The notes beneath the pieces were generated by a model. The model searched no databases. It had not been told where the DNA came from and saw nothing but the letters and a program-made list of their open reading frames with translations. Source: an uncultured Gemmatimonadota bacterium (GTDB lineage Bacteria; SM23-81; DAOVCL01). From it: 64,000 nt of DNA. A program made the translations under genes and the position numbers. Location of the stretch: NCBI GenBank assembly GCA_964626665.1, contig CAZVGK010000002.1, positions 64,001-128,000 on the forward strand, given 5' to 3'. Shown here piece after piece: positions 24,198-50,340 of the stretch (its first letter is position 1; every line of letters starts with the position of its first letter).

Positions 24198-25973
24198 ATG
24201 ATGCGCAAAATGCTTAGATTTACTAAGATCACCTTCTGGGTTGTGATTATAGCCTTTGTCGGGTTTATGGTCTTCAATGTAGGAATGAAGGTAACATCTA
24301 CCAAAAGGAGATCGAGTATGGTGGTGGGGGAAGTGAATGGCATCAAGATAAGCTACCAACAGTTTCAGAATACCCTGCGCCGACAATATATGGAAAATCG
24401 GGACAAGGTCAAAGAGATGGATAGTCAGGCAGAAGAGAGGTTAAGGGAAGAAACCTGGAACAACATTGTAAATTACGCCCTTCTCGATCAGGAGGTAAAA
24501 AAGAGAGGGATAAAGGTCTCCAACTCGGAGGTAATTGCCTGGGTGGCTTCCAACCCTCCCCCATCGGTCCTCTCCGATACTACCTTTCGCACTGAGGATG
24601 GGAAATTTGATTACCAAAGATATATGAAGCTCCTCAGCAACCCTTATATCGATTGGAGCTCATTGGAAGAGAAGGCCCGTTCGCTTCTGCCCGTGCAGAA
24701 GCTACAAAACCTGGTCTTCAACACGGTAAGGGTGACTGCCAATGAGGTTGAACAAGAGTATATCAGGAGAAATGAGAAGGTAAAGGTGCGCTGGCTGCAG
24801 GTTCTCCCCTCCGATTTCCACAAGGAGAAGATTCAGGTTTCAGATGAGGAGGCGCAAACCTACTATCAGGAACACAAGGAGGATTTTCAGGAGCCCCCGA
24901 AAACCAACCTCAAATATCTCCTCTTGGCCAAGGAGCCCAGCAAAGCCGATGAGGAGAGCGTCAGGGTTAAAATTGAGGAGATAAGGGATATGGTAATCTC
25001 TGGGGAAGACTTCTCAGACCTGGCCCAGGAATACTCCCAGGGGCCATCGGCAGCTAAGGGGGGAGATCTGGGTTTCTTTGAAAGAGGGAGTATGGTTAAA
25101 CCATTTGAGGATGCTGCCTTCTCCCTCAAGCAGGGTGAGATCTCCCAGCCAGTGAGGACCAGATTTGGCTGGCATATTATTAAAGTGGAGGAAAGGGGGG
25201 AAGACAAGGTTCATGCCCGTCATATTCTCCTCAAGGTAGAACCCTCCCTCCAAACCCTGGATGAGATCAGAAATAGAGCAGAGGACTTCGCCCATTTGGC
25301 GGCGAAGGAAAGGCTGGTTAAAGCTGCCGATGACAGCCTTCAGCTTAAGGAGACCGGCCTCTTCAACCAGGGCAGATACATACCAATGATCGGGGTGAAT
25401 CCAACGATCTCTAAGTTTGTAGAGGAAAACGATGTGGGTAAGACCAGCAGTTTGGTGGAGACAAAGGCCGGATACTATATCTTCCAGATAGTTGAGAAAA
25501 AAGGGGCGGAGGTCCCTCCCCTGTCCGCGGTTAAGGAGAGAATTAAATCTCAATTAAGCCAGCAGAAAAGGAGGGAACTTGCCCTCAGGGAAGCTAAGTC
25601 AATTGCTCAGAGGGCAAAGGAAAAGGGTTCTCTCATCAAGACCGCCAGGGAATACAAACTGAAGACCAAGCCAACGGATTACTTTACCCGCATGGACTAT
25701 ATTCCTGATGTGGGCCGCCTCCCCCGATTTATTGGCACGGCTTTTCGGTTAAAGAAAGGTGAGATAAGCCCCGTGGTGGAGACTGAAAAGGGGTTTTATA
25801 TACTACAGCTTTTAAGCAAAAAGGGAATTGATGAGAAGGGTTTTGCTGAGGAGAAGGATGATTTGAGAAAGGAGATCCTTCAGGCCAAGCGGAAGGAGGC
25901 CTTTACCAAGTGGTTTACAGCAATCAGGGACAAAGCCGTAATCAAGGACTATCGGAATCAGTTTTACAAATAA
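24198..25973 (+). CDS. ppiD: PpiD-like membrane-anchored peptidylprolyl isomerase (SurA N domain plus rotamase)
   Basis: N-terminal TM helix; FSDLAQEYS..SAAKGGDLGFF..MVKPFEDAAF..FGWHIIKV parvulin domain. Confidence 0.85.
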   Translation: MMRKMLRFTKITFWVVIIAFVGFMVFNVGMKVTSTKRRSSMVVGEVNGIKISYQQFQNTLRRQYMENRDKVKEMDSQAEERLREETWNNIVNYALLDQEVKKRGIKVSNSEVIAWVASNPPPSVLSDTTFRTEDGKFDYQRYMKLLSNPYIDWSSLEEKARSLLPVQKLQNLVFNTVRVTANEVEQEYIRRNEKVKVRWLQVLPSDFHKEKIQVSDEEAQTYYQEHKEDFQEPPKTNLKYLLLAKEPSKADEESVRVKIEEIRDMVISGEDFSDLAQEYSQGPSAAKGGDLGFFERGSMVKPFEDAAFSLKQGEISQPVRTRFGWHIIKVEERGEDKVHARHILLKVEPSLQTLDEIRNRAEDFAHLAAKERLVKAADDSLQLKETGLFNQGRYIPMIGVNPTISKFVEENDVGKTSSLVETKAGYYIFQIVEKKGAEVPPLSAVKERIKSQLSQQKRRELALREAKSIAQRAKEKGSLIKTAREYKLKTKPTDYFTRMDYIPDVGRLPRFIGTAFRLKKGEISPVVETEKGFYILQLLSKKGIDEKGFAEEKDDLRKEILQAKRKEAFTKWFTAIRDKAVIKDYRNQFYK

Positions 25974-25987
25974 GAGGATACAGAATT

Positions 25988-26489
25988 GGGGTCAGCCCTC
26001 AGAAAATAGATTTTCTTCGGTCCTTTCACCCAACTCCCTAAACTGGCCATCCCCACTGAGAAGTTCTTTTGCTTTTTGCGATATATAACTCACATTCCCT
26101 CCTGTGTTCCCCCCAAACTCTATACCGATTGCCACATTGGTCGCCCCACCGTACCTCTGAGCCAGATACACGAGCTCTGTTCCCATGACATCCGCCGGCA
26201 CGCAGGACCTCCTCAGATACACCAGCAAGCCCAATTTCTCCACAGCACCTTCGAGGCACTGGAGGAAATGTTGCTGATCAAGCTCATCACCGAAGATCGC
26301 CTATCGTTCGTTCCCTCGGTCTGTGAGGTGATAGAGCGCACCAGGCCACCCAATGCGCAGAGGCCTTGCCATAGGTGAGTAACCTTCAGAGACAAGGAAT
26401 ATCCCAACAAATTATTATAATGGCTTGCCTACTACCGGAATAGTATAGCAACCCAAGAATGTCAATATCTATTTTCTGAGGGCTGACCC
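25988..26489 (-). mobile_element. Non-autonomous element: internally deleted RAYT-like transposase between 23-bp inverted repeats
   Basis: GGGTCAGCCCTCAGAAAATAGAT at 25989-26011 with a perfect inverse at 26467-26489; 26372-25992 reads MARPLRIGWPGALYHLTDRGNER*AIFGD... fused to a DnaA-C-like HTH tail. Confidence 0.8.
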
Positions 26490-26815
26490 AAAGCTTTGGC
26501 GTATTTGTCTTTGTCCGATCGTGCCATCATTGTGCCATCACCGTGCCGTGACCGTGCCATCATCATTTAGTACAAGGAGGGGGGAAGAGGTCACATCTTT
26601 TTTTGATCTTTGCAAGTGAAAGGGAAGTTGATGCTTAACATAATTCAAGACGCCTGAAAGTAAAGATATAACCCCTTTTTATTTTTCCAAGCGACCGCCC
26701 CCCCCTTGAAGGACCTGAACTTACAGAAGTATTGTCAAATGTCAAGGGTTGACCCTACTTTCGCATGATTGGGGGAACTCTACCCTATTTGTCGTAGGAA
26801 ATTTGAAAAAATAAC

Positions 26816-26844
26816 TTGACAATGCCGACCCCAAAAATTATATT
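26816..26844 (+). promoter_or_regulatory. Sigma70 promoter with no downstream ORF
   Basis: TTGACA-17 nt-TATATT. Confidence 0.6.
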
Positions 26845-26850
26845 AAGTTT

Positions 26851-26955
26851 GTAATGTAAGTAGCCGATACTTACATTAGTAGTTCTTTACTCAGAGTAAG
26901 GAACCCACAAAGGTCTCTGCCGCTGAACCGTAATCAGCGACATTTTTATTTTCAG
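26851..26955 (+). ncRNA. Candidate small RNA with three hairpins
   Basis: Perfect 11-bp stem TAATGTAAGTA/TACTTACATTA, second stem 26882-26904, terminator-like CGCTGA/TCAGCG plus T-rich tail. Confidence 0.45.
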
Positions 26956-26957
26956 CC

Positions 26958-27344
26958 TTACCATCTTGGATTGCTCCTCATCTTCCTCAATGCTGAACGA
27001 CTTCTCACGAGGTAGGCCGTAATGAATCGAGCTTGTGTAGAGTCCTTTGGGTCAATTTGGATGATCACTGCATAAGGAGTGTTTGATTCTAATGCAATCC
27101 TTCGCACCTTTCCGTTCGGTATCACCCTACGATAGATTTCCATCGTTGCATCTTCAAGGACATATTTGATCCAATCGATCCTCTCTGCTCTACTTTTGTC
27201 AAATCGATCCTTAACTGGGAATTTCCGACTACTTGATGAAAAGAACGCGTGATTAAAATTTTCTCGAAAGAATTTCACAGTGATTCCATCGAAGGTCAAA
27301 ACAGAATTCGCCTTTCCTACATATTTGTTGATATGGAGATTTCG
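26958..27344 (-). pseudogene. 5'-truncated small basic protein, possibly a BECR/PBECR-fold nuclease
   Basis: TFDGITVKF..NFNHAFF..RAERIDWIK..YAVII..FITAY; frame stays open up to the repeat site at 27345. Confidence 0.5.
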
Positions 27345-27361
27345 GGGGACACCATACTGAT

Positions 27362-28023
27362 TTATGTTTTTGGCTTTCTGCCTGGCTTCTTAGGTTTTAA
27401 ACTGAGACTAAGCATACTTTCCAATTGGTCAATAGATGCCATGCTGCCCAGTGGCCGGCCAGTCCTTTCATGTTTGCGTATGCTTTGTTCCTCTTCAGAT
27501 GTTACCTTCTCTGAGAGAAAATCTGACCAGTCTTCTTTAACCAGCGAAAGCAATGGTTTCATATTGACCAGTTGGTCATTCTTTCCCCTGATATGAGATC
27601 TCGCACTGCTCAAGCCCACCCCTCAGCTCTATCCACTAACCCAGCCCGCACCGGATTGTTCTCAATATATCTGACACAGACAAGTAAATACCTCTCATCC
27701 ATTACATGGGAAGCAAAACGTCCCTGCCAGAGATGGCCTCTCCATCCTTCACGAAAGTTTACCCGGCGCGTATATCGACGATGGGCCTCTCCGATAGCAA
27801 GCCTGAGACTCTCTCTTTCTGAGGGTACGGCAATGAGATGAACATGATTCGGCATCAGGCAATATGCCCAGATGTCAACATCATACGTCCTGCACCAGTG
27901 TGTCATAAGTTCGATGTAAGCTGTGTAGTCTTCATTTGAGAAGAAGGTTTGCAGCCTTCTGTTGCCCCTTTGGGTAATATGGTGGGGTAAGCCCGGCGCA
28001 ACGCCCCTTGCTATTCTCGGCAT
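27362..28023 (-). pseudogene. Y1 HUH (RAYT/IS200-like) transposase, frameshifted near 27615
   Basis: PHHITQRGNRR, MPNHVH (HUH), HLWQGRF, RYIENNPVRAG; continues in a second frame (SSARSH...PKKPGRKPK). Confidence 0.9.
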
Positions 28024-28049
28024 AGGGGTAATTTAGTTGGGGGCTACGC

Positions 28050-28078
28050 TTATGTCAAGAAATAAGTATGGTGTCCCC
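28050..28078. repeat. Family-B site (TTATGTCAAGAAATAAGTATGGTGTCCCC)
   Basis: Perfect 29-bp inverse at 29413-29441; partial copies at 27345-27363 and 28478-28504. Confidence 0.85.
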
Positions 28079-28095
28079 AGAATCATGCCAGAATC

Positions 28096-28245
28096 ATGGG
28101 TAGGTACTTCTCCGGCATTGCTCGGAGAAGGGGCAGGAAGATAGCCAAGCTCTCCTTGGCCAGAAAGATTGCCAAGGGAGTTTACCACATGTTGAAGAAT
28201 AAGATGACCTTCGCTGAATATAAGAGCAGATACTTAGCCAAGTGA
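28096..28245 (+). pseudogene. C-terminal remnant of an IS110-family recombinase
   Basis: Translates YFSGIARRRGRKIAKLSLARKIAKGVYHMLKN, the typical IS110 C-terminal helix pattern. Confidence 0.7.
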
Positions 28246-28477
28246 GCTCCTCTTTATTCTTTCACCCCATAGGGGTACTTGTCAAGACTGGGCAGCTTGG
28301 CGTCCCGAATAGTGATATCTTGCGTCTCTCCCCGAAGCGCCCATAGAAGAGTGGAGCAAATCCCTTAGATAATTCGGGAGCTTAAACGGGAGGGCACATA
28401 ACCAAGGGAAGGTTAAAATGAGGGAATAAATAAGGAGGGTCGTCTTAGAAAAAAGGGGTTGACGAGCTTCTTTATAG
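28246..28477 (+). ncRNA. IS110 3' non-coding end, predicted bridge/seek RNA
   Basis: Two stem-loops with internal loops carrying TGTCAAGA and ATAGAAGA; end motif GGTTGAC..TTTATAG abuts a family-B site. Confidence 0.5.
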
Positions 28478-28509
28478 AAGAAATAAGTATGGTGTCCCCA
28501 GAATTACTC

Positions 28510-28697
28510 CCAATAATATCTGGCCCCATAGTAATATAAACCAAGGCCGGTCTCTGAGTCAAGCTCTTTGCCTGTGAACTTGTGGGTGTTGGCCAGGGAG
28601 CCTGTCTCCTCGCTTACCCTTCCAAAGGGATAGTAGTGGTAGTCTTTAACCACATCTCCAGAGCTGTTGGTGATGACCACAGGTGAGCCAAGGGGTC
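28510..28697 (-). pseudogene. RHS repeat-associated core fragment
   Basis: LGSPVVITNSSGDVV..YYPFG..KFTGKELDSETGL..YYYGARYY, cut at both ends by repeat sites. Confidence 0.85.
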
Positions 28698-28819
28698 TAA
28701 GTAAAAAATGTAGCTTTGACCCCAATTTGTCTAAAGGATGTTTAGTTCTCTTTCTCAAGATGGGTTTCTTTGGCTTTGTTATGAACTTGTGGAAGTGGGG
28801 AGAGATGGATCGGTGTTGG

Positions 28820-29308
28820 TTAAGATGACTCCTGTTTTTTATTGCTCTTTGTTTCTGTTTGAGAGACTAAAATGACAAGTTGACGTTTTAATAACAGCCT
28901 CTTGGACCAGAAATCAAAAGAATAATGACAAATTAACAAGAATAGTATAACTGGAATCATCACGAGAAATTGGGATACAACCTCAGCAAGGTATGTCATT
29001 ATTTGCGTTAATAATGTATCCCCTTGTGTCACAATCATTTCTAGAGTTCGACCTGTTCGAATCAAACCTAAAAAGACTGTTAACACCAAAATGAGTACGA
29101 CAAGAATCCCCGTTGCCATCTTACCAATAGACAGTTTATTCTCCATTATTAGTAAGGTTCTTTTTACCCGAGAATCCAACTCGAAATCTTGAGAAGTCCT
29201 CAATTCTTCTTCAATCTTTCTTAGCCTCTTGCTTTCCTTCAGATGAACGATTATATTTCCACCTATTATTAGAGCTATAATAGAAAACGATATTATCGAG
29301 TAATACAT
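28820..29308 (-). CDS. AT-rich membrane protein with about 3 TM helices, putative immunity/cargo gene
   Basis: 162 aa ORF with a GGAGAGAGG ribosome-binding site; lies just downstream of a truncated gene 3' end (29330-29410). Confidence 0.6.
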   Translation of the reverse strand: MYYSIISFSIIALIIGGNIIVHLKESKRLRKIEEELRTSQDFELDSRVKRTLLIMENKLSIGKMATGILVVLILVLTVFLGLIRTGRTLEMIVTQGDTLLTQIMTYLAEVVSQFLVMIPVILFLLICHYSFDFWSKRLLLKRQLVILVSQTETKSNKKQESS

Positions 29309-29780
29309 TTTCCTCTCTCCAATTAAGGGTTATTCCGTTTCTTTCTTCTTTTCCATTTTCTCTTTGTCCTTAGACTCTCTAAGTTCTTCCATCATCTTGT
29401 AGTACTAATTCAGGGGACACCATACTTATTTCTTGACATAAACATGGCACACAACTTGGCAAATGGGGTCAGGTAAATGAGGTTAGGTTGAAGAGTAGAA
29501 ATAAATACCGCTGCAATTTTGATTCTATGGATTGGGGGGGAATTCGGGACACTTCCTATATTTCTTGGCAGTTGGGCTTGGCAAATTGACTTTGAGGAAA
29601 AGAAAGAACGGAGTGGTGGGGCACGGGACTGAGCACTGGGTATGAGGTTGAGAAAATCCAGGGCCTCAGGGCAATCCGCTTAGTGGAGATCGATCCATTA
29701 GTGGATCGCCTACCTCATTGTTCCATATCCACCCCGCTCTGGGAAACAAAAAAGAACATACCAATCCCACTTTGAGTTAC

Positions 29781-29803
29781 GGGGCAAGCCCTCAGAAAAT
29801 AGA
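29781..29803. repeat. Family-A site, solo copy
   Basis: GGGGCAAGCCCTCAGAAAATAGA matches the 25989 and 30902 sites. Confidence 0.75.
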
Positions 29804-29974
29804 CTTTCAAGAATCTCGGAACTTACGATGAGCACCGATCTGAACAGACTGCCATGCTCGTCCTCTCCCCCTTAATCTAACGCCTAATTCTGACTTCCGA
29901 GTCTCTCGGTCTCAAATCAAAAAGGACGAACAGAAATCCCCCCTGCAATTGCCAACGAGACGGTTGTTTCCTTG

Positions 29975-30274
29975 CTACTGTCGGAAAAGCCTCAGAACTC
30001 TGTCTGTTTCCTTCTTCGACACAATTCGGAGGATTAAGACCGTTTGTTGGTGAATTCCATAAAAGAGACGAAAACTATCTATCGGAGTATTTACCCGTAG
30101 CCGGAAGAGAGGATATTTCATACCTTTGATTTTCTTCTTGATGTTGCCGCGGGGGAACGGGTCTTGCTCCAGAATCTTTGCTCTCTTTAAAATGATATCT
30201 CGAGTTCCTCCTGGAAGTTTCGATAGGTCCTTTTGTGCGTGGGAAGCAAATTCAACTCGGAACCTATCGGCCAC
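29975..30274 (-). CDS. RelE/ParE-family toxin
   Basis: FRVEFASHAQKDLSKL..DPFP..KKIKG..FRLRV..FRLFY; overlaps the antitoxin gene. Confidence 0.85.
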   Translation of the reverse strand: MADRFRVEFASHAQKDLSKLPGGTRDIILKRAKILEQDPFPRGNIKKKIKGMKYPLFRLRVNTPIDSFRLFYGIHQQTVLILRIVSKKETDRVLRLFRQ

Positions 30275-30530
30275 GCCTTACTCCTTTGCTAAGGAGAGCC
30301 GTGCGACTTTTTGTCTTTCCTCCTTTTAGTTCTTCTTGGGCTTTTTCGAATTCTCCCTCAAGGTTGTAATGTTTCGCCAGGATAAAATTCTCAATTTCGT
30401 CCTCATGAATCTCGATAAGGAGATATCGTGGTTTCCCAAACTTGGTGATGATGATCGCTTTCTCCCCCTCGAGTTCTTTGAGCAGTTGAGATGTACCTGA
30501 ACTCAGTTCTCTAATGGTGGCAAATTTCAT
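30264..30530 (-). CDS. Phd/YefM-family antitoxin
   Basis: MKFATIREL..IIITKFGKP motif; upstream of the RelE-like gene. Confidence 0.85.
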   Translation of the reverse strand: MKFATIRELSSGTSQLLKELEGEKAIIITKFGKPRYLLIEIHEDEIENFILAKHYNLEGEFEKAQEELKGGKTKSRTALLSKGVRRGR

Positions 30531-30569
30531 CTATGACCTCCTGCAAAGTGTGACTACAAGTGTATGTAC

Positions 30570-30598
30570 AAAATACTGCATCAGAATCAATTTGTCAA
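30570..30598 (-). promoter_or_regulatory. Sigma70 promoter of the TA operon
   Basis: TTGACA-17 nt-TATTTT on the minus strand. Confidence 0.55.
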
Positions 30599-30901
30599 GG
30601 TCTTTTTAGGGGAAATTTCTGCTCAACAAGTGAGGCTGGAAGGTCAGGCCGAAACTTCTCCCCTCAGATCCGGCGGTTAGGAGACCTGTCTGAGAGGGGA
30701 ACGAAAAGTGGCCAATTGGGGGAGGAGCCGGGATGATGGAGGAAATTCTGGATCAAATCGGGCTGGATTTCAGTCGGGAAATAGATATCATCGCTCCTTG
30801 TGGATGATAACATCCATAAGGAGCGCAGATCCCCTCTCGATGACGTTGAGCCTCCCTACGAATTTAACGACAGGTTGAATTCCACCCTCTGCACAGAATT
30901 T

Positions 30902-31224
30902 GGGTTAACCCTCAGAAAATAGATCTTTAGGGACCTCTCTGTTCACTCCTTCAACTGGCTATCCCCACTGAGACACCCTTTCATTTTTTGCGTTACATAG
31001 CTCATATTTGTTCCCGCAATTCCCCCAAACTCTATGCCGATTGCTAAGTTGTTCTCCCCATTGTACCTTTGTCCAGATACACGGGTTTCGTTTCCATGCC
31101 ATCTGCAGGCACGCAGGGCCTCTTCAGATACACCAGCAAGGCCGAATCTCTCCACAGCACCTTCGAGACACTTTAGCAGATGTTGCCGATCACGGTCATT
31201 TTTTATTTTCTGAGGGTTGACCCC
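30902..31224 (-). mobile_element. Second, shorter copy of the deleted RAYT-HTH element with family-A inverted repeats
   Basis: GGGTTAACCCTCAGAAAATAGAT at 30902 and its inverse at 31204-31224; interior homologous to 26012-26280. Confidence 0.8.
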
Positions 31225-31609
31225 AATTTATCCCACTAAGAGGGAAAAGCCAAAAATAAAATCCAAAATACTAATCCCAGCGAGGAAGTAGGTATAGACA
31301 ATATCACGAGTGGGTCTGCGTAAATGTTTTCTCATTATTTGAAGATAATTACGGATGTGCGAAAGGGGAGTCGGATCTTTATCCTCGATTTTTTGCAGGG
31401 GAGAAGCTGATTGATGTGTATGTTATGGCTGAAGATAACCTAAAATCAGAGGTAGAGAGGTAATCCGATTCCCTATTCTAATTTGTCTAAATTTAAGGGC
31501 TGATCTCTTTATGGCCCTTACAAAAAATATACAGATCAAATGGCCTATTGTCAAGCCAAACTTCCGTTGGCTTCCCTCATCATTTTCCTTGCCCAATCAA
31601 AAAGAGGGG

Positions 31610-31637
31610 TTGACTTTGGGCCTGGATTTGCTATAAT
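31610..31637 (+). promoter_or_regulatory. Extended -10 sigma70 promoter of exbB-exbD-tonB-lysC-asd
   Basis: TTGACT-16 nt-TATAAT with a TGn extension. Confidence 0.7.
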
Positions 31638-31685
31638 AAGGCCGACCCATCGTTACCTGAAAATTATAATCTTAAGGAGGCCTTT

Positions 31686-32303
31686 ATGTCCTTTTTTTCC
31701 ATTGTGGCCAAGGGGGGATGGTTGATGGTGGCCATCTTCATCTGTTCTTTGGTGGCGGTGGCCATTATCGTGGAGAGGTGGATAGCCCTGCACAAGGCGA
31801 GGATAAATACCCACTCCTTCTTTATGGAGATTAAGGGATTGATCCTGAGGGAGGAGATAACCGAGGCCATTGAGAGGTGCAAGAAGACCCCCGGTCCAGT
31901 TGCCTCCATATTGAAGGCCGGCATAGAAAGGCAAAAGGAGACCAAGGAGGAGGTCAAGGAAGCTGTGGAGAGCTCGGGGAAGGTGGAAGTGCACCAATTG
32001 GAGAGATACTTGGGTGTTCTGGCGACCATAGCTGCTGTGGCTCCTCTCTTGGGTTTTTTGGGGACAGTTACCGGAATGATCAAGGCATTTATGCGCATTG
32101 AAGCTTTAGGGGGGAATGTGAACGCCACCGTCCTGGCTGGAGGGATCTGGGAGGCTTTGGTGACCACCGCTGCCGGCCTTACCGTGGGGATACCGGTCTT
32201 GATATTCTACAATTATTTCCAGGGAAAGGTAGATAGGTTCGTCTATGAGATGGAGGAGAGTTCCAGCAAACTCCTGGAGACCTTGGGCAAGAGAGGAGGC
32301 TAA
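31686..32303 (+). CDS. exbB: MotA/TolQ/ExbB proton channel protein
   Basis: APLLGFLGTVTGMI, LAGGIWEALVTTAAGL. Confidence 0.92.
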   Translation: MSFFSIVAKGGWLMVAIFICSLVAVAIIVERWIALHKARINTHSFFMEIKGLILREEITEAIERCKKTPGPVASILKAGIERQKETKEEVKEAVESSGKVEVHQLERYLGVLATIAAVAPLLGFLGTVTGMIKAFMRIEALGGNVNATVLAGGIWEALVTTAAGLTVGIPVLIFYNYFQGKVDRFVYEMEESSSKLLETLGKRGG

Positions 32304-50250: not shown

Positions 50251-50340
50251 GATATTTCAATTTTGGTAGTTTCCGGGCAGCCATTAAGTAGTTGATTTGT
50301 AATTTGAGATAAAAAATAGGAAGTGTCCCTATTTTAAGAG

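Follow-up and report, generated by a model that had tools for sequence, protein, structure and literature searches.

A variable gap at positions 25974–31685 of the window (the whole 64,000-nucleotide stretch of DNA from an uncultured Gemmatimonadota bacterium that was analyzed here, and to which all coordinates without a contig name refer) lies between housekeeping genes, bordered on the left by a PpiD/SurA-like peptidyl-prolyl isomerase (PPIase) gene with Rotamase and SurA_N domains (24198–25973) and on the right by a tolQ/exbB-exbD-tonB group starting at 31686. Within this gap, 5.2 kb (25988–31224) are crowded with short repeated sites, which very probably are the terminal inverted repeats (TIRs) of TIRtrons: elements that consist of a gene for a RAYT-like Y1 (HUH) transposase, with its own promoter inside one end, and two inverted ends of 23–30 nt. 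A preliminary description of this DNA had not recognized the sites as a named system, but the name exists: Di Nocera, De Gregorio and Rocco (2013; PMC3733652) call the element TIRtron and its enzyme TIRYT, and the motif GGGGWSAS goes with it (PMC3733652, PMC6006769).

Elements and Solo Ends in the Gap

The gap contains one dead A-type element, one A-type mini (a short copy with both ends), one frameshifted B-type element, and five to six solo ends of the families A, B, and C. Its other contents are small repeats, gene relics (an RHS core, an IS110-like stub, and a 143-aa gene), and one toxin–antitoxin (TA) pair. The elements and ends are as follows.

25986–26492, minus strand: A1, an A-type TIRtron, internally deleted and dead; TIRs at 25986–26014 (gene-3′ side) and 26464–26492 (promoter side, with TTGACA at 26460–26465), forming inverted repeat I3 (29 nt, 93% complementary)
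26372 to 25992, minus strand: remnant of the A1 gene, with an in-frame stop after codon 23
26740–26761, minus strand: D site, a short promoter end resembling a TIR, GGGTCAACCC with TTGACA immediately after it; a family of three copies in the genome at up to 4 mismatches
27341–28083, minus strand: B1, a B-type TIRtron; TIRs at 27341–27363 and 28057–28083, with paired arms (I7) at 27341–27363/28060–28082
28023 to 27362, minus strand: Y1 gene of B1, with a frameshift near 27610–27622
28058 to 28030: predicted sigma-70-like promoter of B1, TTGACA-17-TAAATT (score 10/12), directly inside the 5′-side TIR
28478–28506, minus strand: solo B TIR, a promoter-type end (direct repeat D5, 100%; inverted repeat I2, 97%)
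29406–29456, plus strand: solo B promoter-type end, consisting of TIR, TTGACA, and 20 nt, then broken (repeats I1 and I2)
29465–29540, plus strand: decayed A/E-like end (GGGGTCAGG...), recognized by its motif
29546–29745, plus strand: C-type end (GGGACACTTCCTAT followed by TTGGCA) fused to a noncoding module of ~200 nt with a 12-bp closing stem, GGGGTGGTG/CCACCCC
29773–29807, plus strand: solo A TIR, a gene-3′-type end (repeat D3, 74%; 2 mismatches to the A pattern)
30897–31228, minus strand: A2, a 322-bp A-type mini; TIRs at 30897–30921 and 31204–31228 (I6)

The repeated A and B sites reported in the preliminary description are real, its coordinates being off by only 1–8 nt. Searched as a 22-mer with up to three mismatches, the A pattern (GGGTCAGCCCTCAGAAAATAGA) matches the window five times (25989+, 26468−, 29782+, 30902+, and 31202−), against 0.01 expected from 100 shuffles, and the B pattern (GGGGACACCATACTTATTTC, a 20-mer at the same threshold) four times (27345+, 28059−, 28480−, and 29413+), against 0.00 expected. 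Repeat finding lengthens these sites to arms of 23–29 nt, 91–97% complementary, that pair as inverted repeats, and the whole 5.2 kb is framed by an A-type inverted pair (I5, 96% complementary). The C site at 29546 likewise holds, at one mismatch from a genome-wide hairpin family; of the D sites, the one at 26740–26761 belongs to the three-copy family, whereas the one at 28712–28728 is weak, with 76% identity to the reference copy. A further site, GGGGTCAG at 29465, had been overlooked.

The families have GGG(T/A)CA in common, as first described. The outer motif reads GGGGTCAG in A and E, GGGGACAC in B, and TAGGGACAC, with three G, in C. The bare 8-mer GGGGWCAS is not enriched across the window (15 occurrences, 14.1 expected; 6 of the 15 fall inside 25988–29472). 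TTGACA, said to follow several of the sites, was found next to the TIR at 26460–26465, 28053–28058, and 29435–29440; located just inside one TIR, this box is the predicted promoter of the transposase gene. Whereas folding of the A and B ends is no stronger than that of shuffled sequences (z −1.3 to +0.6), the C ends do fold (z −2.95 and −4.8): They are self-complementary, begin with (A/T)TAGGGACAC, and belong to a 24-nt hairpin family with 65 genome copies at up to 2 mismatches, mostly between genes and with the foot ATAG, not GTAG.

Several of the ends recur elsewhere in the genome or in the gap itself. The region of the D site (26722–26756) matches C2:186512–186547 at 92%, and the solo B end at 29406–29456 is 98% identical to C10:81260–81309, the end of a 208-bp B mini. 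A2, which retains only the decayed 3′ third of the gene, is 78% identical to A1 over 309 nt, its protein remnant matching that of A1 at 3e-21; minis in the genome measure 172–335 bp and retain both ends with scraps of the gene. The B ends at 28057–28083 and 28478–28504 are 100% identical over 27 nt and lie in direct orientation around the IS110-like stub and 230 nt of DNA.

Transposase Genes between the Paired Ends

DNA of Y1 genes lies between the paired TIRs of A and B elements, which agrees with the linkage to RAYT-like Y1-HUH transposases first proposed for these sites. The B1 protein matches Pfam Y1_Tnp at 3.1e-14, with the HVH and RYIENNP motifs visible in the alignment, and is 52% identical over aa 1–137 to an intact protein encoded on contig C21 of the same genome; the gene is frameshifted, as its C-terminal part continues in another frame, where the tail matches aa 140–219 at 1e-7. 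For A1, the N-terminal 23 aa are 61% identical (4e-8) to the start of an intact protein from contig C58, likeness to the helix-turn-helix (HTH) region of the latter is weak (E 0.088), and the remnant has no Pfam match. All transposase genes in the 5.2-kb stretch are broken.

The intact genes of the same genome are laid out like A1 and B1, with the Y1 gene bracketed by TIRs. The C21 gene is present in two copies whose proteins differ at 4 residues (221 aa; Y1_Tnp 5.3e-16), and its TIR is AAAATAGGGACACTTCCTATTTT (family C), followed by TTGACA. The C58 protein is longer (323 aa), combines Y1_Tnp (1e-9) with Bac_DnaA_C (3.1e-12), is encoded next to the TIR GGGGTCAGGTCTTCATTCTAC, and scores 84.1 bits with the NCBIfam model REP_Tyr_transpos, above the cut-off of 80. 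Scores with NCBIfam transpos_IS200 reach only 14.3–21.1 bits against a cut-off of 55.

Distribution of the Ends in the Genome and in Other Phyla

The genome (63 contigs, 3.17 Mb, 99.65% complete) contains nine Y1_Tnp matches and, at the thresholds used, 96 TIR ends: 12 of family A, 13 of B, 65 of C, and 6 of E. When ends no more than 3 kb apart are joined, 55 clusters result, of which 36 are single ends, 13 are pairs, and 2 are triples; the four larger ones comprise 4, 5, 9, and 10 ends. The cluster of 10, with ends from three families, is the 5.2-kb stretch. A genome search for the site families had been proposed with the preliminary description, and it finds the ends clustered and this stretch the densest in the genome. 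When 96 points were placed at random, 500 times over, clusters reached 5 points at most; paired ends inflate the cluster counts twofold, and the excess persists. Ends of unlike families adjoin at this stretch and on contigs C7, C4, and C16. The cluster of nine (C21:23920–29579) consists of two intact TIRtrons, two 227-bp minis, and a solo end, all nine ends being of family C, with no fewer than four small TA-like gene pairs between them.

The genome has 16 Phage_integrase matches, and TIR clusters have several of these fragments in their vicinity, at most a few kilobases away (on contigs C17, C47, C10, C59, and C4); decayed mobile islands thus tend to be where the clusters occur. A tyrosine-recombinase pseudogene interrupted by 6 stop codons (C10:80917–81297) extends into the 208-bp B mini (C10:81095–81302). 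A second TAG was observed 7–12 nt outside the core ATAG at 23 of the 65 C ends, compared with 3–15% in five control windows; this could reflect a longer TIR subfamily, or insertion next to ATAG.

When species-representative genomes were searched with the C21 protein, 459 relatives appeared, the best 80 of which were taken. The loci compared were the 58 with at least about 250 nt on both sides, that is, 57 of these 80 and the single relative of the C58 protein (L108); the other 23 of the 80 loci were left out, being cut by contig ends. A flanking inverted repeat is present at 41 of the 58 loci, and 35 of the 41 repeats contain GGG[AT][CG]A[CG], a fourth G being present in 4 of these. The end motif is mostly TAGGGACA[CG] in these genomes, located ~35–48 nt before the start codon and 0–50 nt after the stop codon, often with TTGACA next to it. 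The hosts include Desulfuromonadales, Planctomycetota, Omnitrophota, Nitrospirota, and WOR-3. The one E-type locus found in other genomes (the C58-protein relative) has a repeat without the motif. The assignment of the sites to TIRtrons draws on observed element anatomy, family link, clustering, and truncations, and on the end motif, which is conserved beside homologous genes of other phyla.

History of the Gap

The gap between the PPIase gene and tolQ-exbD-tonB is probably a long-lived, selectively neutral landing pad for elements. In two genomes of the same genus (G001 and G002), the PPIase gene and tolQ are found on different contigs with other neighbors, and the only part of the gap interior common to relatives is 29481–29535, which matches G001 alone (L013:3334–3388, 84%); G001 has a decayed A-like end there, ~50 nt after its PPIase gene. 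As this end is homologous to 29481–29535, the 3.5 kb of 25986–29464 are extra in the genome studied here, and the landing pad is older than the divergence of the two species. No clean pair of a filled and an empty site came from G001 and G002, the flanks of the B mini on C10 being kept in neither.

Outside the gap, a perfect C-type hairpin (window 50307–50336) lies 6 nt before the stop codon (GCTAAG) that remains of a small gene. G001 and G002 both have this gene upstream, and BLASTN finds none in the present genome; the hairpin at 50313 thus marks a synteny break with the two relatives.

Genes Cut at the Ends

Between the elements, the gap holds the following genes and gene fragments.

26958–27344, minus strand: 5′-truncated gene of an unnamed 141–143-aa family, its first ~17 codons replaced by a B TIR
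28084–28245, plus strand: probable IS110-family C-terminal stub, starting at the outer edge of B1
28507–28710, minus strand: RHS repeat-associated core fragment, ending ...YYGARYYWE against a B TIR
28820–29308, minus strand: 162-aa open reading frame (ORF), hydrophobic by eye, without a Pfam or NCBIfam match
near 29410, minus strand: putative 3′ end of a gene, ~24 codons
29975–30277, minus strand: ParE/RelE-like toxin (ParE_toxin 1.3e-4, 22.9 bits, just under the cut-off of 23)
30264–30530, minus strand: Phd/YefM-like antitoxin (PhdYeFM_antitox 2.4e-4, 21.3 bits, under the cut-off of 29.8)

Truncation of neighboring genes exactly at the sites, a central observation of the preliminary description, is borne out by the ORF at 26958–27344 and the RHS piece, both of which stop at B TIRs. 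The family of the former has 66 relatives at E ≤ 1e-3 among 80 candidates, only one of them with a Pfam domain, and its alignment with 11 relatives diverges before residue ~18; a search of the whole genome did not find the lost start, and six other genomes of the phylum have no homologue. Its label as nuclease-like is unsupported, as neither Pfam nor NCBIfam gives a match. The RHS piece matches TIGR03696 (Rhs_assc_core) at 7.4e-9 and 36 bits (cut-off 32.5), over profile positions 1–38 of 76. The stub at 28084–28245 is a weak assignment (transpos_IS110, E 0.011, 14.8 bits, profile positions 306–341 of 343) and has no relationship to either of the two IS110 genes that the genome carries. Targeting of the B ends by an IS110 element was considered and rejected: The stub match is weak, and the two unrelated IS110 genes are not beside TIRs.

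The pattern of cut genes is consistent with a decaying junkyard that insertions, and recombination among the copies, have reshaped. The enzyme, if it acts like TnpA-REP and the TnpA of IS608, would recognize and cut at the GGGGWSAS end, and the minis and solo ends would be nonautonomous or decayed derivatives. Elements may insert into dispensable genes of a neutral gap, after which one side could be lost through homologous recombination, or through deletion, between pairs of the many similar copies within a few kilobases. Gene fragments that stop exactly at a TIR would result, with no special enzyme activity or handling of cargo. A related case is found on C21, where a TIRtron has been duplicated together with part of the adjoining RelE-like toxin gene in a tandem repeat of ~3.5 kb; as the duplication is tandem and bounded by like copies, it is explained by unequal homologous recombination. 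One copy of this duplication is without the antitoxin and the 5′ part of the toxin, lost exactly at the TIR.

A more active part for the enzymes is possible, if unlikely: TIRYTs might home to ends like their own and so gather copies of several families in self-renewing hotspots, with one-ended or aberrant cleavage and joining at the TIR edge deleting or duplicating adjacent DNA. This would explain the breakpoints at the edges of all four B TIRs, the C21 TIRtron duplicated with part of the toxin gene, the C hairpin at the synteny break at 50313, and the outer TAG at 23 of the 65 C ends. If it is true, TIRtrons are active drivers of turnover in islands of toxins, TA pairs, and mobile elements.

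The preliminary description went further, reading the sites as working recombination sites at which RAYT-like enzymes capture, cut, and shuffle cassettes of toxin, immunity, and TA genes. Fragments that stop exactly at TIR edges (4 of 4 B ends), TA pairs interleaved with the 9 C ends of the C21 cluster, where a TIRtron and part of a toxin gene were copied together, the side-by-side position of unlike families here and on C7, C4, and C16, and the bracketing of the 5.2 kb by the 96% complementary A-type pair all speak for such a system. However, none of the cargo pieces (26958–27340, 28084–28477, 28507–29405, and 29808–30790) has a second copy in the genome, where the only recurring parts of the stretch are transposase-derived DNA and small noncoding repeats, and each TIR pair encloses nothing but a transposase gene or its internally deleted remains. 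Genome-wide, the open frame across the outer edge of an end has a median of 47.5 codons (96 ends) versus 158 at 2000 random positions, and a frame of at least 100 codons crosses only 19 of the 96 ends versus 63% of the random positions; the ends therefore avoid genes, as repetitive extragenic palindromic (REP) sequences and miniature inverted-repeat transposable elements (MITEs) do. Moreover, every transposase gene in the stretch is broken, the same-genus relatives have none of the cargo, and the C21 duplication is the tandem product expected from recombination between like copies. With cargo that is single-copy, TIR pairs that hold only transposase DNA, and ends that are mostly intergenic, we consider capture and shuffling very improbable and prefer the decay of TIRtron insertions described above.

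An integron- or shufflon-like cassette array was likewise rejected: The sites pair around transposase DNA, not cassettes, and no tyrosine recombinase gene is present in the window, the nearest on the contig being more than 90 kb away.

Hairpins and Other Small Repeats

One repeat of the gap belongs to a separate family and is not a TIRtron end.

30792–30829: REP-like perfect hairpin (−15.9 kcal/mol, z −8.6)

The 15-bp stem of this hairpin shows a paired change from CTCC/GGAG to CTCT/AGAG among its copies, and its family has 37 genome matches at up to 6 mismatches, a few of which are one palindrome counted on both strands. A divergent 213-codon Y1 gene (C2:27723–28364) has one copy directly upstream, which suggests a true REP/RAYT pair.

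The presence of this hairpin, and the fit of the C family (a 24-nt hairpin in 65 mostly intergenic copies), could be taken to mean that the ends of the stretch, too, are REP or REPIN sequences served by a single domesticated RAYT, in a cluster like a bacterial interspersed mosaic element. We hold this to be very improbable: The A and B ends are unfolded, without the GT[AG]G foot, and present in only 12–13 copies, and the enzyme genes are multicopy with a decay like that of insertion sequences (IS), represented by two near-identical C21 genes, a frameshifted B1, gutted A copies, and minis bearing gene scraps.

The noncoding module at 29546–29745 has four full and two partial copies in the genome (the other full ones at C35:18519–18721, C3:58380–58588, and C4:43058–43288) and none in 20 relatives. 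It could be either a foldback DNA repeat or a small RNA transcribed from a TIR promoter; we treat it as the former because there are only four copies and the fold is equal on both strands (z about −3 on each). Its copies have no downstream gene in common. Two more dispersed repeats (window 26571–26676 and 31361–31472) occur on other contigs in three to four copies each, at 72–83% identity. Rfam has no family at E ≤ 1 across window positions 25500–32000.

Target Sites and Movement

Target duplications were found at none of 18 paired elements; in particular, no 5-bp duplication accompanies the four paired A elements, which have a near-constant AATT on both sides. These data bear on a last alternative, in which the ends stem from a DDE transposon family (e.g., Tn3-type miniatures) and the Y1 genes are passengers. 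Tn3-type 38-bp ends likewise begin with GGGG and contain TCAGAAAA. A DDE origin, favored by a possible likeness between the A end and Tn21-type inverted repeats, is extremely improbable given the lack of 5-bp duplications at the A elements, the lack of a DDE_Tnp_Tn3 match in a genome 99.65% complete (other DDE families were not searched individually), and the pairing of each end family with its own Y1 type, with constant spacing to the start codon, here and at 35 of 41 loci elsewhere. The sites were rightly set apart in the preliminary description from the ends of a DDE insertion sequence.

Several observations weigh against the TIRtron assignment. No movement was seen, the 24 public runs with the stretch existing only as assembled contigs. 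The contigs of four runs show no join from TIR to TIR across a whole element at the locus; as contigs are unable to show rare excision, this says nothing either way, and the joints that do occur in them (e.g., 27382 to 27919) are mini variants from other copies. Gene fragments without their other halves abut 4 of the 4 B ends in the stretch, another fragment lies beside a C21 TIRtron, and the C hairpin at 50313 lies at a synteny break; fragments at TIR edges exceed what plain insertion predicts. With REP_Tyr_transpos, B1 (72 bits) and the C21 protein (78.7 bits) both score just below the cut-off of 80. The B- and C-type proteins have no Pfam HTH match (an AT-hook at E 0.31 is insignificant) and are in this respect unlike the TIRYTs of subclass 2.1, and the C ends have GGG, not GGGG, and are self-complementary and REP-like. 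Family A has no intact gene in the genome, in 20 relatives, or among longer proteins, the evidence for its putative link to Y1 enzymes being 23 residues, a slight resemblance in the HTH region, and the common layout.

To our knowledge, no TIRYT-class enzyme has been assayed so far. Under the names TIRtron and TIRYT, a full-text search gave three records, among them PMC3733652 and the preprint of PMC6006769; these two papers describe the elements by sequence only. The genome offers a compact natural series of intact, frameshifted, and gutted genes, minis, solo ends, and four related end types, and many phyla have the conserved end core, (T)AGGGACA(C/G), at a constant spacing ahead of the start codon. 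Together, they are ready substrates for the first biochemistry of a Y1 enzyme acting on inverted, nonhairpin ends. In genome annotation, TIRtrons explain one class of the contig breaks and gene fragments found in these sediment bacteria.

Comparison with Known Systems

The elements have the Y1 HUH catalytic domain (Pfam Y1_Tnp) and the lack of target duplication in common with the IS200/IS605 family (IS608 and ISDra2). They differ from it in having TIRs, whereas IS200/IS605 elements have differing subterminal hairpins on one strand and no TIRs; this contrast, already drawn in the preliminary description, is not a new feature, as TIRYTs are set apart from RAYTs and IS200 by this very criterion in the literature.

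REPtrons and REPINs with their RAYTs (E. coli TnpA-REP and the REPINs of Pseudomonas) are closer. The enzymes fall into the same clade, REP_Tyr_transpos being the best NCBIfam model, and in both cases the gene lies between inverted copies of a short repeat that also spreads intergenically. However, the A and B ends form no palindrome, carry no GT[AG]G tag, and number 12–13 copies, and the genes are multicopy and decaying, whereas RAYT genes are single and vertically kept.

Internally deleted two-ended copies, solo ends, nesting, truncated neighbors, and contig breaks at repeats are likewise known from MITEs and IS junkyards; the difference is that the partner here is a single-strand Y1 transposase, not a DDE enzyme, and that target duplications are absent.

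The best match are the TIRtrons, described as RAYT-like genes between long terminal inverted repeats in place of REP hairpins, with GGGGWSAS common to many of the TIRs, whose families are in some genomes moderately abundant and occur as singles, dimers, and clusters (PMC3733652, PMC6006769); some of the TIRs in PMC3733652 also fold. According to Quentin et al. (2018; PMC6006769), 20 of 26 described TIRYTs belong to TnpA-Y1 subclass 2.1, all of those with an HTH tail (Bac_DnaA_C, HTH_23, or HTH_28). In the present genome, RAYT-like Y1 genes are flanked at similar distances by long non-REP inverted repeats, the outer GGGGWSAS is present in A, B, and E, with one G fewer in C, one type (C58) has the Bac_DnaA_C tail, and several TIRYT types coexist with moderately abundant TIRs in singles, dimers, and clusters. 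What differs from the published TIRtrons are the IS-like minis with gene scraps (172–335 bp) and near-identical duplicate genes, and the stacking of three families in one 5-kb gap. The system is thus of the known TIRtron/TIRYT kind, and the stretch is a dense and instructive new example of it.

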